From UHGV virus genome UHGV-1747927: a stretch of 10,821 nt of DNA; one strand, written 5' to 3'. This document shows, in pieces, positions 3,650 to 10,765 of the stretch. The stretch comes from a virus. The notes beneath the pieces are model-generated. The model saw only the letters and a list, made by a program, of their open reading frames with translations, was not told where the DNA came from and did not search any database. The translations under genes were made by a program, and so were the position numbers. Positions within the stretch are counted from its first letter, which is position 1; each line of letters starts with the position of its first letter.

Positions 3650-5026
3650 TCATACGTCCGCCCCTTGTGCATATCGTCTGCCACGCGCAGCAGGTGCATT
3701 TGATGCTGTGCAAATCTGTCTGGCTTCATCCTGGTCACATGCAACAAAGTGTCCGTTGCAGAACCGCTGGTAAACCGTACCAAGTGAGCCAAAACGGTTT
3801 TTCGTCACGATGATTTCAGCAAATGGCGCGGCGCTACTGTTCTCGTCATATACCGCTTCCCGATAGAGCATGATGATTGAGTCTGCGTCCTGTTCAATGC
3901 TTCCTGAATCACGCAAATCTGCGTTTGTCGGGCGTTTGTTTGGTCGCTTCTCAACATCGCGCGAAAGCTGACTCAGGGAGATAACAGGCGTTTTCAGGTC
4001 TTTCGCCATCGCCTTCAGGCTTCCGGAGATGTGAGCAATTGCGAGGTCGTTGCGATCTGCTTTCGGCTTCTCAATCAGGCCAAGATAATCCGCCATGATG
4101 AGTGACAGGTTTGGATTTTCCTGTTTGTGCCGTTCTGCGATTGAGCGTATTTCTTCGACCGATAACCGCGAGGCATCGACTACCCATACATCCAAATCTG
4201 CAAGCTGACTCATGCCGTTAGCAACACGCGCCCAGCCTTCGTCATCCATCGATGCAGGATTTCGCAGTACGCTAACCGACATCCTCCCGGCGTTGGCAAT
4301 GCTTCGCTCTGCAATCTGCAATGCGCTCATTTCCATCGAGAAAATCAATACCCCGCGCCGGACGTCAGAACCAGGAATAACGCGGCTTGCAACGCCTTCG
4401 GCAATCTTCAGAGCCAGTTCGGTTTTCCCCATACCAGGACGAGCAGCGATTATCACCAGGTCTTCCGCGTTCATCCCTCCGGTGATGGCATCAAGTTCTT
4501 CGATTCCGGTCTTCAGGGTATCTGACTCTTCTCCGTTCCTCAGACGCCTGTCAAGCGTGTCAGTGTAGTCGGTGATGATTTCCCCTAACCGTACCGGTTT
4601 AACCTCGTCACGGGGCTTTCTGATGGCTGAAAGACGCTTTACAAGCTCATCCATCGCCTGACTCGATGCGTCGATGGTTCCGCTCTGAATTGGTTCACGC
4701 ATTTCATCCATGATTTCCAGCACCAGACGGCGGTGATAGTTATCCGCGACCATTCCGGCATATCCCTTCAGGTTTGCGGCACTCGGGCAGTTTTTGCTGG
4801 TCATCAGGATTGACGTGAAATGCTCCTCTCCGCACGCCTCGGCAACCATCAGCGCGTCGATTAGGTTTCTGTTTCTCGCCTGCTTGCGGATAACCTCGAA
4901 GGCTTTCCGGTAGAGCGGAATTGAAAACGCTTCCGGCTCCAGCGTTGCCAGAACGTCGCTGGCGGTTGGTGTTAATCCACCAATCAGCAGGCCACCGATA
5001 ACGCTCGCTTCGATATCCTGTCTCAT
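3650..5026 (-). CDS. DnaB-family replicative DNA helicase (458 aa)
   Basis: N-terminal DnaB-like motif (EASVIGGLL); Walker A (AARPGMGKT); and the DnaB C-terminal motifs [38 protein letters not shown]. The start overlaps the O stop (ATGA). Confidence 0.9.
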
Positions 5027-6405: not shown

Positions 6406-6451
6406 TCGCTTTGTCAGCGACGTAGGACGAATGTCCATTGTGAAAAGAGCG
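6406..6451 (-). promoter_or_regulatory. nutR-like site: boxA-like CGCTCTTTT and boxB hairpin UCGCU-GACAA-AGCGA
   Basis: Minus strand just after the cro stop. boxA-like at 6451..6443, boxB at 6420..6406 with a 5-bp stem and GACAA pentaloop. The boxA-boxB spacer is 22 nt, longer than in lambda. Confidence 0.5.
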
Positions 6452-6756: not shown

Positions 6757-7473
<717 letters not shown>

Positions 7474-7846: not shown

Positions 7847-7885
7847 AGAGCGCCTGCCGAACTCCCTATCCACCTTAAGCGGTAT

Positions 7886-8264
7886 ATGACAAACCGAGGC
7901 AGAGTTCCTCATACGCACTTTTCTATGCTTAATGAACTGACGTTTAACTTGGTTGCGCCACTTGAACAGGCCGGATATACGCTGCCAGAAAAAATGGTCC
8001 CTGATATTTCAGAGGGTAGGGTTTTCTCGCAATGGCTCCGTGACAACCGGGGGGTTGAGCCGAAGACATTCCCAACATATAACCATGAGTACCCAGATGG
8101 CCGGACATTCCCGGTACGTCTATACCCAAACGAATATTGCAGATTTCAAACAATACTTCAACGAAGTGTGGCTGCCTCAGTACGCTCCTAAATATTTTGC
8201 TGAACGAGACCAAAGGGCATTGACGTTGATTGAGAAAATCATGCTACCTGACCTTGATTCCTAA
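7886..8264 (+). pseudogene. Downstream ORF with apparent +1 frameshift (frames 7886-8191 and 7953-8264), in frame with KilA-N across a single TAA
   Basis: The 7886 frame looks protein-like up to about 8130 (...RTFPVRLYPNEY). The +1 frame looks protein-like only from about 8130 (ADFKQYFNEVWLPQYAPKYFAERDQRALTLIEKIMLPDLDS) and ends 8 nt before a terminator. The 7886 frame is the KilA-N frame and only one stop (7844-7846) separates them. Confidence 0.4.
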
Positions 8265-8450: not shown

Positions 8451-8513
8451 AACCATCTGCGGTGATGAATTATCTCTAGCGGTGTTGACATAAATACCAC
8501 TGGCGGTGATACT
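8451..8513 (+). promoter_or_regulatory. pL promoter with OL3-OL2-OL1 operators
   Basis: OL3 is AACCATCTGCGGTGATG (8451-8467), OL2 TATCTCTAGCGGTGTTG (8471-8487), OL1 TACCACTGGCGGTGATA (8495-8511). -35 TTGACA (8485-8490), 17-bp spacer, -10 GATACT (8508-8513). Nearly identical to lambda pL as recalled. Confidence 0.85.
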
Positions 8514-8581
8514 AAACACATCAGCAGGACGCACTACTCACCAGGGCGGTGAATATACAACGATTCAAATATGAATCTACG

Positions 8582-8596
8582 GCGCTGACAAAGCGC
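8582..8596 (+). promoter_or_regulatory. nutL boxB hairpin GCGCU-GACAA-AGCGC
   Basis: A 5-bp GC-rich stem with GACAA pentaloop about 60 nt downstream of the pL start. The same loop occurs in the nutR boxB. It matches the P22 boxB-left sequence as I recall it. No clear boxA was seen upstream. Confidence 0.5.
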
Positions 8597-8608
8597 AATA
8601 ACCAAAGT

Positions 8609-8710
8609 GAACTTTGGGGTGAATGCAGAAGCTAACCTTCTCGGCGGAGGCGCTTTGCAATGATTACGCTACCGGAGTTAGTCGCCCGGCTGTATTCACC
8701 GCCAAAGTTC
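8609..8710 (+). promoter_or_regulatory. Long-range leader stem enclosing about 70 nt upstream of N1 (candidate RNase III processing or translation-control structure)
   Basis: GAACTTTGGGGTGAAT (8609-8624) pairs with ATTCACCGCCAAAGTTC (8694-8710) with one bulge. The 3' arm ends 4 nt before the N1 Shine-Dalgarno (AGGAGG). The analogous stem before N2 carries compensatory changes. Confidence 0.45.
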
Positions 8711-8724
8711 ACCAGGAGGTCTAT

Positions 8725-9108
8725 ATGACACGCAGAACTCAGTTCAAAGGCAATTCACGTTCTCGTCGTCGTGAGCGTTTAAAGGCAAAGGCATTAGCTA
8801 ACGGCGTACTGGCCCGCGAAGAAGCAATAAGTTCAGAAGTATTACACCGCCCTACTCTAAGCAGAGCGCAGATTCAGGCTAAAGGTACTCACGAAACGCC
8901 TGAGCGCATAGAAGACGCTAAGCCAATTAAGTTCATGGCACAGGACGTGATCTGGCAACAGAAAGAATACAGACGCAATCTGGAGAGAGCGGCCATTGTG
9001 TACGCGAATGAGTTTGGACATAAGCAACCAGAAACTGGTGTATGTCTTCCAAATGTAGCTCTTTACGCAGCAGGATACCGGAAATCAAAACAACTGACGG
9101 CGAGATGA
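8725..9108 (+). CDS. N: N-like transcription antiterminator N1 (128 aa from the Shine-Dalgarno-supported ATG)
   Basis: First gene after pL and nutL. AGGAGG lies 6 nt upstream of the ATG at 8725. The N-terminal arginine-rich motif (KGNSRSRRRERLKAKALANG) resembles the P22-type ARM as recalled. The track start at 8623 would lie inside the leader stem and lacks a Shine-Dalgarno. Confidence 0.7.
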   Translation: MTRRTQFKGNSRSRRRERLKAKALANGVLAREEAISSEVLHRPTLSRAQIQAKGTHETPERIEDAKPIKFMAQDVIWQQKEYRRNLERAAIVYANEFGHKQPETGVCLPNVALYAAGYRKSKQLTAR

Positions 9109-10010: not shown

Positions 10011-10026
10011 GCTGCGAATAAGCACT

Positions 10027-10054
10027 GTGTATTCATTCCGACGAGTGAATACAC
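10027..10054. repeat. Perfect 9-bp-arm inverted repeat (GTGTATTCA, 10-nt spacer, TGAATACAC) 17 nt after the cassette stop
   Basis: Read directly. No U-tract follows on either strand, so it is not a canonical intrinsic terminator. Confidence 0.4.
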
Positions 10055-10400
10055 GGAGCAATGTCGCTCGTAACTAAACAGGAGCCGACTTGTTCTGATT
10101 ATTGGAAATCTTCTTTGCCATCCGAAATGCGGGAACTGAGTTTAACCAAACAGGAGGTGCCGTAATGGTGCACTAACGCGGTTAGACCGCAGCCGAAAGG
10201 CAATGCAGCAGTAATGATGCTGCCCCGAGTCGCGTAATGGCGAGCAGGTTTAGCAGACCGATGTGAGGGTAAATAAGGGAACATGCTCCGGAAAGGCAGC
10301 GCGAATGCCAGACGCGCACCGGTTATCAGCGGCTAATAAGCGACAGAGACTCAAGGGCATGAGCGCGCTCACTGCGAGAGTGTGAGTCAAAGAGTAGTTG

Positions 10401-10475
10401 GCTTTGGGGTGACGTGAAGTGCAGCTGCACGACGGCAACCGGAAGATAAGCACCCGGCGCGTCACCGCCAAAGTC
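10401..10475 (+). promoter_or_regulatory. Leader stem upstream of N2, analogous to the N1 leader stem
   Basis: GCTTTGGGGTGACG (10401-10414) pairs with CGTCACCGCCAAAGTC (10460-10475). The arms are the same as in the N1 stem except AAT/ATT is replaced by ACG/CGT, which preserves pairing. It is followed by the Shine-Dalgarno GGAGG and the ATG at 10493. Confidence 0.4.
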
Positions 10476-10492
10476 AATCATCGGAGGTCAAC

Positions 10493-10765
10493 ATGACAGT
10501 AGTCATTACTTATCTGGCTGACGATAACGCCAGAAATCGCCGCAGAGCACGCAGACAGGCTCAACGTGAACAGGCAATGCAAGAGCAGCGACTGGCGCGA
10601 AAAATTGCGCTGAAGCTCTCTGGTTGCGTCAGAGCAGATAAAGCAGCATCACTCGGAAGCCTTCGCTGCAAGAAGGCAGATGAATGCAGTGGAAGTATTT
10701 GCCTGCCAAACGTAGCCATTTACGCGGCAGGCTACCGGAAATCAAAACAACTGACAGCGAGGTAA
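10493..10765 (+). CDS. Second N-like protein N2 (90 aa) with a lambda-like arginine-rich motif and the same 21-aa C-terminal tail as N1
   Basis: GGAGG lies 6 nt upstream. The N-terminal ARM (NARNRRRARRQAQREQ) resembles the lambda N ARM (QTRRRERRAEKQAQ) as recalled. The C-terminal CLPNVAIYAAGYRKSKQLTAR is shared with N1. Confidence 0.6.
   Translation: MTVVITYLADDNARNRRRARRQAQREQAMQEQRLARKIALKLSGCVRADKAASLGSLRCKKADECSGSICLPNVAIYAAGYRKSKQLTAR

Follow-up and report, generated by a model that had tools for sequence, protein, structure and literature searches.

Each of two tandem N genes in a lambdoid prophage is preceded by a conserved long-range hairpin, probably a copy of the lambda N-leader RNase III element

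What is a long RNA hairpin doing directly ahead of each of two N genes in the same phage? The question is raised by a 10,821-nt stretch of the virus genome UHGV-1747927 (called the window below), which is the early region of a lambdoid prophage. A sequence-only reading had noticed a stem in each N leader, had argued from its covariation that it is a functional RNA structure, and had likened it to the RNase III site that controls N translation in lambda. The answer reached here is that each stem is probably a local copy of this lambdoid hairpin for RNase III processing and control of translation. The finding is correct and is essentially already understood; it is not a new mechanism. The lambda-type assignment is well supported for the first gene, N1, which has its own nutL just upstream, and is weaker for the second, N2, an operon-internal gene that lacks an intact cognate nut site.

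The two N genes (Table 1) are of different types. N1 and its leader are 98% identical to those of H-19B/933W and other Stx phages, while the N2 region shares 98% identity with its counterparts in mEp213 and HK620, and N2 with its leader has matches in HK620, HK630, and mEp213. Between N1 and N2 lie two plus-strand open reading frames without a Pfam match. The deposited complete phage genome of mEp213 carries a tandem N pair too, with the same N2 block, and the whole two-N arrangement was found in one place in none of the complete E. coli genomes of the collection. At their 3' ends, the two N genes share a direct repeat of 67 nt (9038-9104 and 10695-10761, 85% identity), and recombination between these copies could therefore swap or delete N modules.

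Which of the two N proteins serves this prophage? The boxB of nutR matches that of the nutL ahead of N1, and N1 is therefore the cognate antiterminator of the prophage. A 19-nt stretch of the N1 nutL region is, moreover, 95% complementary to the nutR region at 6407-6425. For comparison, two hairpins have been described in the nutR of H-19B (PMC3526286). Only N1 fits the nutL and nutR boxB of the prophage; N2 has no intact cognate boxB nearby. N2 also lies about 1.9 kb into the PL operon rather than being promoter-proximal, and a promoter scan found no promoter near it. The nearest boxB-like sequence is a degenerate remnant whose stem is, by our own reading of the sequence, disrupted. A larger segment, 10022-10130, was considered as a nutL for N2 and rejected, as it is a widely conserved element of about 100 nt that is normally found 1 to 1.5 kb downstream of N. 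This sequence (10022-10123) is 94 to 98% conserved in nearly all lambdoid loci fetched, contains a hairpin, GTGTATTCA...TGAATACAC, at about 10028-10056, and usually sits 1 to 1.5 kb downstream of the N-leader stem; in VT1-Sakai it is directly upstream of an ea10/ssb homologue. In the window, it is the junction where the N2 block was joined.

Table 1. Features of the early region, in coordinates of the window
Feature	Position	Strand	Remarks
nutR boxB, UCGCUGACAAAGCGA	6406-6420	-	same type as the N1 nutL boxB
cI, lambda-type	6760-7473	+	
PL promoter, TTGACA / 17 nt / GATACT	8485-8513	+	promoter scan, 10/12 matches; near-identical to lambda PL
PL transcript start (putative)	A8520	+	CATCAGCAGGACGC motif
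nutL of N1	8562-8596	+	spacer hairpin and boxB, both recovered in the full-leader fold
Spacer hairpin GAUUCA-AAUA-UGAAUC in N1 nutL	8562-8577	+	
boxB GCGCUGACAAAGCGC in N1 nutL	8582-8596	+	
Alternative local hairpin CCAAAG-UGAA-CUUUGG	8602-8617	+	-6.4 kcal/mol; competes with the lower long-range stem
N1 stem, 5' arm	8607-8628	+	core CUUUGGGGUG at 8612-8621; from MFE pair list and covariation
N1 stem, interior	8629-8689	+	variable, 61 nt, three small hairpins; from MFE folds
N1 stem, 3' arm	8690-8712	+	core CACC-G-CCAAAG at 8697-8707; bulged G8701
N1 Shine-Dalgarno, AGGAGG	8714-8719	+	
N1 gene, H-19B/933W type	8725-9108	+	127 aa; Pfam N_peptide, E = 1e-15
Degenerate boxB remnant, CCATCCGAAATGCGGGAAC	10116-10134	+	nearest boxB-like sequence to N2, 265 nt from the stem
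Structured element of ~265 nt	10122-10387	+	unannotated; between boxB remnant and N2 stem
Mini-ORF ATG GTG CAC TAA	10164-10175	+	3 codons, strong Shine-Dalgarno; in the ~265-nt element
3' hairpin of ~265-nt element, CACUGCGAGAGUGUG / CUCACUGCGAGAGUGUGAG	about 10368-10386	+	conserved
N2 stem, 5' arm	10397-10416	+	core at 10402-10411; from MFE fold and covariation
N2 stem, interior	10417-10457	+	41 nt; GUGAAgUGC motif and sub-hairpin CCGG-AAGAUAAGCAC-CCGG
N2 stem, 3' arm	10458-10478	+	core at 10463-10473; bulged G10467
N2 Shine-Dalgarno, GGAGG	10483-10487	+	
N2 gene, HK620/mEp213 type	10493-10765	+	90 aa; Pfam N_peptide, E = 1e-15

Computational folding of the two leaders returned both stems in the minimum free energy (MFE) structures, and at 22 bp for N1 and 20 bp for N2 they are longer than the 14 to 17 bp first claimed. 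Each has one bulge, and the arm duplexes have predicted energies of -34.2 kcal/mol (N1) and -31.1 kcal/mol (N2). The stems are missing from the top gapless inverted-repeat matches because the bulge splits them, and they were assessed by folds and pair counts instead. The 131-nt N1 segment folds at -52.5 kcal/mol (z = -4.8) and the 111-nt N2 segment at -43.5 kcal/mol (z = -3.6); in neither case did any of 200 shuffles do as well. The 3' arm stops just before the Shine-Dalgarno sequence, as had been noticed from the start, leaving a gap of 1 nt in N1 and 4 nt in N2, with the start codons at 8725 and 10493.

Could the helix be purely a structural clamp, one that limits ribosome access by the Shine-Dalgarno sequence or protects the message, with no processing by RNase III? 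The 1 to 4 nt between 3' arm and Shine-Dalgarno sequence and the tightly fixed distance to the start codon would suit such a role, as would the pairing, in the N1 fold, of C8602-C8603 with G8715-G8716 of the Shine-Dalgarno sequence. Yet the Shine-Dalgarno sequence and start codon are otherwise largely unpaired in both folds, and a length of about 20 to 22 bp together with a strictly conserved core fits recognition by the enzyme. In addition, it is established that RNase III acts on the homologous helix of lambda, according to passages of PMC5371410 and PMC7315355 that cite the original work. Given the lambda precedent, a clamp independent of RNase III is less likely than an RNase III hairpin, and overall we consider it unlikely.

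A strong, GC-containing helix ahead of a gene may also bring to mind an intrinsic terminator or attenuator, a reading to which we give almost no weight. A U-tract is missing after both 3' arms (the next letters are CAGGAGG in N1 and CAUCGGAGG in N2), a plus-strand terminator scan was empty at both sites, and interiors of 41 to 61 nt far exceed the loop of a terminator. An intrinsic terminator was rejected on the missing T-run and the missing plus-strand match.

What, then, ties the stems to the RNase III hairpin of lambda? The likeness first suggested is supported by direct sequence homology of the arms. In lambda (locus L002), the N leader between the nutL boxB and the N Shine-Dalgarno sequence reads GGCUUUGGGGUGUGUG ... 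CACACACC-A-CCAAAGC, and lambda, N1, and N2 all match the pattern CTTTGGGGTG...CACC-N-CCAAAG. Common to the three is a 10-bp core, CUUUGGGGUG paired with CACC-R-CCAAAG, that has a bulged purine at the same position of the 3' arm (G in N1 and N2, A in lambda). They are also alike in their position in the PL transcript, in the distance from core to start codon, and in having a variable interior inside the helix. What differs are the five pairs above and the five below the core, where the changes are compensatory, and the interiors, which at 61 nt (N1) and 41 nt (N2) compare with about 91 nt in lambda and are unrelated to it in sequence. In lambda, the helix with this core is known as the RNase III site of the leader, located after nutL and before the ribosome-binding site of N; the cuts presumably fall at G88/G89 and C197/C198, positions not used as evidence here. 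Canonical substrates of E. coli RNase III are about 20 to 22 bp long, as these helices are, and both stems reach the required two turns or so (about 20 bp). As passages of PMC5371410 that cite Steege et al. 1987 describe, RNase III acts on the N leader of lambda and thereby modulates translation of N; PMC7315355, citing Wilson et al. 2002, also names this leader as an RNase III target.

Both stems thus have the arm homology with its bulged purine, the length, and pairing that has been kept in evolution. Placement is where they part. The lambda order of PL, nutL, stem, Shine-Dalgarno sequence, and N is complete at N1; at N2 the stem does directly precede the Shine-Dalgarno sequence, but the leader is not promoter-proximal and, in place of an intact cognate nutL, has a degenerate boxB 265 nt away.

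The two copies in the window already provide a first view of how pairing is retained. When pairs are matched by their distance from the shared 10-bp core, six of them are changed on both sides: A-U/C-G, U-A/G-C, G.U/U.G, and C-G/G-C above the core and A-U/G-C and G-C/U-A below it. Two further pairs are changed on one side only, to a wobble, and 12 are identical. The sequence-only reading had listed three compensatory positions, AAT/ATT versus ACG/CGT; the compensation is real, but it was undercounted, and the first A-T of that list is the same in both copies. The same reading had called the enclosed loops unrelated. They mostly are, except that both interiors end in a similar sub-hairpin adjoining the 3' arm, ACCGG-(A)AG(A/U)UA(A)G..C-CCGG, with an alignment score of 30.5 against 22.3 +/- 3.3 in shuffles (8 of 500 as high).

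Does the covariation extend beyond one prophage? The argument from covariation to a functional RNA structure holds, and it extends to more than 100 distinct leaders. A pattern scan with the two core arms, CTTTGGGGTG...CACC-N-CCAAAG, and the interior left free returned 205 viral contigs, in which there are 104 distinct hairpins with interiors of 69 to 127 nt belonging to many unrelated sequence classes. The interiors differ widely and have been exchanged wholesale between phages. For 78 distinct arm sets a gap-free alignment was made, in which the core is invariant by force of the search pattern. All 10 pairs that the pattern leaves free, five above and five below the core, covary. In these 78 arm sets, 93.1% of cells are paired, compared with 78.2% when shuffled and 38 to 46% when the partners are slid, and cells with a double change number 200, compared with 54 +/- 6 shuffled and 26 to 76 slid.

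A second sample, unbiased as to the stem, was drawn by way of the N protein, with one genome per species. The search profile was the C-terminal 34 residues of N, the diverse full-length N proteins having no stretch that is conserved enough. Of 24 loci obtained, 22 were usable, among them loci from Citrobacter, Enterobacter, Leclercia, Pantoea, Brenneria, Lonsdalea, Serratia, Ewingella, and Cedecea, and the helix with its bulged purine is present in all 22. In this sample the core covaries as well: GGGAUG/CAUC in Enterobacter, Atlantibacter, and others, GGAGUG/CACU in Serratia, UUUUGG/CCAAAA in Lonsdalea, GGGAUU/AAUC in Leclercia, and GGGUUU/AAAC and GGGCAAG/CUUGC-A-CCC in two more loci. In 135 of 141 loci, 17 to 21 nt separate the core's end from the start codon. 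The stem precedes N genes of two C-terminal types and of many arginine-rich N-terminal types (by eye, about ten). Ahead of the stem, the leader usually begins with the PL start, marked by the CATCAGCAGGACGC motif, which recurs at this position in most loci compared, and continues with a small hairpin, boxA, boxB, and 15 to 18 nt before the 5' arm; boxA and boxB precede the stem in most leaders, and in HK620 the annotated nutL is immediately upstream of it.

These same comparisons bear on whether the arms act at the level of DNA, as boundary sequences that promote homologous recombination at module junctions and have no function as RNA. The arms do lie at mosaic junctions (homology to HK620 starts at window position 10388, directly before the N2 5' arm), the interiors between them are exchanged as wholes, and the entire cI-N intergenic region of CUS-3 is annotated as "bsq5; boundary sequence." A recombination linker, however, needs identity and not complementarity between two sites, whereas covariation is seen at all 10 variable pairs and, in distant genera, in the core as well, and the position relative to the Shine-Dalgarno sequence is fixed. 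That the arms serve as boundary sequences without any RNA function is therefore very unlikely, and a boundary role and an RNA role are not mutually exclusive.

The helix, in sum, is found in every N leader examined across Enterobacterales, with an almost invariant core, covarying flanks, and exchangeable interiors. It shows neatly, in natural sequences, how a site of RNA processing can be modular, and it lends itself readily to an Rfam-style model. An Rfam scan of the whole window at E <= 1 gave no match, so the N-leader hairpin is evidently not an Rfam family, and a search of a paper library for the literal core sequences found no match.

Besides the long-range helix, the leaders have further conserved features. 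One is an upstream box, CCAAAG or CAAAG, located 4 to 9 nt before the 5' arm and able to pair with CUUUGG, giving the alternative local hairpin of Table 1; the N2 counterpart of this pairing is at 10388-10406. In 38 of 72 distinct contexts, compared with 3.1 expected, the 20 nt upstream contain the reverse complement of the 5' arm's first 5 nt. In three relatives whose arm reads CUUCGG, the upstream box is CCGAAG or CCGGAG, and the long-range partner is not adjusted. The alternative hairpin could arise as an intermediate of cotranscriptional folding, or it could protect the 3' end of the nutL RNA after its release. The other features lie in the interior. Hairpins of the N2 class have an invariant unpaired motif, GUGAAuUGC (GUGAAgUGC in N2 itself), after the upper stem; 36 of 114 distinct hairpins have it, at a constant spacing from the 3' core. 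The sub-hairpin at 10439-10457 has the loop GA(A)GAU(A/C)AGCA and is always 10 to 12 nt before the 3' core, and in the alignment of the class its stem covaries (CCGG/CCGG, GCCG/CGGC, CUGCG/CGCAG, CACG/CGUG). N1 has a diverged version at 8672-8689. The conserved sub-hairpin and unpaired motif suggest a specific ligand or tertiary contact. Taken together, the near-invariant core, the unpaired interior motifs, and the upstream CCAAAG point to constraints beyond those on any helix that RNase III can cut.

How might the hairpin work? The following scheme draws on what is generally known of N control in lambda. In RNA made from PL, a long-range helix of about 20 bp would form downstream of the nut site and upstream of the N ribosome-binding site, keeping the region just 5' of the Shine-Dalgarno sequence in duplex. 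It would also tie the start of N to nutL RNA loaded with N and Nus factors, and N translation would be dampened. Host RNase III would then cut the conserved core and detach nutL and the variable interior from the N message, relieving both the structural clamp and the repression in cis by N, with an increase in N translation. The supply of N would in this way follow the level of RNase III, i.e., the growth state of the host. For both leaders, cleavage by RNase III is predicted from the identity of their core with that of lambda, and an effect of the stem on N translation is expected on the same precedent.

The full scheme would apply to N1 only. N2 has no functional cognate nutL next to it, and relief of N-nutL repression therefore cannot apply to it as such. 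At most, its helix may be cut by RNase III or may clamp the ribosome-binding site, and so set the translation of N2 and the stability of its message. Even so, two more N genes, one of the Stx-phage H-19B/933W type and one of the HK620 type, become assignable to a lambda-style RNase III control element. For the Stx phages, this would mean that early expression, and indirectly the development of a toxin phage, is tied to the level of host RNase III.

Like the alternative hairpin described above, two side observations are more novel than the stem itself, and they might lead to something new: an unannotated structured RNA with a mini-ORF, and cargo tRNAs within the hairpin. The first of these is the ~265-nt element between the boxB remnant and the N2 stem. 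In other phages, it is inserted exactly between the nutL boxB and the stem of true PL leaders, and in an alternative setting it follows a terminator and precedes tRNA genes. It occurs in at least 120 viral contigs, which form 87 clusters at 93% identity, a few of these being chance matches of coding sequence to the 15-nt seed. RNAalifold gives 41 pairs, 21 of them with compensatory changes, and the whole-window Rfam scan (E <= 1) has no match to the element. Among complete E. coli genomes it is present in 113 of 5,426; no ncRNA annotation (RefSeq) was found at its sites in these genomes, and in one listed row a "hypothetical protein" overlaps it. The mini-ORFs vary from 1 to 4 codons. The stop codon of the mini-ORF abuts the first hairpin of the element (GCGGWUAGACCGC), which suggests a translation-coupled switch. 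Apparently a structured leader RNA that has not been described, the element is probably the window's most novel feature. A second type of insert, about 220 nt long, lies between the stem and N in some HK620-type leaders (L005 about 7847-8070, L023 about 4721-4945, and L174 about 165-384), and it has a strong Shine-Dalgarno sequence with a start-stop mini-ORF, AGGAGGATTT ATG TGA or ATG TAA. The 265-nt and 220-nt elements together suggest that N leaders are a preferred site for structured inserts with mini-ORFs.

The second observation concerns what the hairpins enclose in other lambdoid phages. In L051 (5485-5557), the Rfam tRNA model matches inside the N-leader hairpin with 45.5 bits and ARAGORN calls a tRNA-Gly(CCC); in L056 (370-450), the match is 34.8 bits and the call tRNA-Pro(AGG); and in L148 (5855-5955), the match is 33.4 bits. 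Relaxed ARAGORN settings add tRNA-like elements with inserts in L211, L222, L213, L225, and L167. In the hairpins with a tRNA or tRNA-like interior, the upper stem is at the same time the acceptor stem, and the conserved core takes the part of a leader-trailer helix. In the window itself, ARAGORN and the Rfam tRNA model found no tRNA or tRNA-like sequence. A tRNA reading of the N1 and N2 interiors was accordingly rejected, as no cloverleaf was detected.

Is it, then, the main role of the helix to excise a cargo RNA as a leader-trailer helix in the manner of rrn boxC, with control of N a secondary matter? The 5' arm, behind the nut site, would in that case pair with the 3' arm as soon as the cargo has been made, and processing would free the interior as an RNA of its own, be it a tRNA, a tRNA-like RNA, or a different small RNA. 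The three tRNA matches are above the gathering threshold, the tRNA-like elements of L211, L222, L213, and L225 would be further cargo, and the N2-class interior has its invariant unpaired motifs and covarying sub-hairpin. The rrn boxC, too, lies in the 5' strand of a leader-trailer helix cleaved by RNase III, downstream of boxB and boxA (PMC10250234). Against this, tRNA-like content is found in just 2 to 8 of 114 distinct hairpins, nothing tRNA-like is in the N1 or N2 hairpin, and most interiors are unrelated to one another. As the primary role, cargo excision is improbable. A broader proposal is that the N-leader stem is a general, rrn-like cassette in which a boxC-like strand pairs with a trailer and RNase III excises an exchangeable cargo RNA; this is doubtful, if somewhat less so. 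Equally tentative is its extension to the nature of the cargo, which might be a tRNA in some phages, tRNA-like in others, and in the N2 class a small RNA with the GAAGAUMAGCA loop. If the cassette proposal were true, the cargoes could supply tRNA, act as a decoy, or counter host defence, and the nutL RNA, once released, would be refolded by the upstream CCAAAG so that a protective hairpin closes its 3' end.

As a probable local copy of the lambda control hairpin, the stem can be set beside other RNase III sites. Lambda cIII and the early intercistronic sites of T7 are phage hairpins that adjoin ribosome-binding sites and are processed by host RNase III (PMC5371410). Unlike the N stem, a long-range helix with an exchangeable interior, they are hairpins formed locally, and they have neither sequence similarity to it nor a link to a nut site. 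The rrn operons offer another parallel. There, as in the N leader, an antitermination signal (boxB, boxA) is followed by a G/U-rich, conserved 5' strand that pairs long-range with a downstream strand and encloses a cargo, and the rrn helix is an RNase III substrate. The 5' arm of the N leader presumably overlaps the historical boxC of nutL. The two differ in that the rrn cargo is a 1.5-kb rRNA whose helix is needed for ribosome assembly, whereas that of the N leader is 40 to 130 nt; in that the downstream strand abuts a protein-coding start in the N leader and flanks 16S rRNA in rrn; and in sequence, the rrn boxC (UCUGUGUGGG) being distinct from the N-leader core. The core of the rrn leader-trailer helix, too, is highly conserved and still covaries (PMC10250234).
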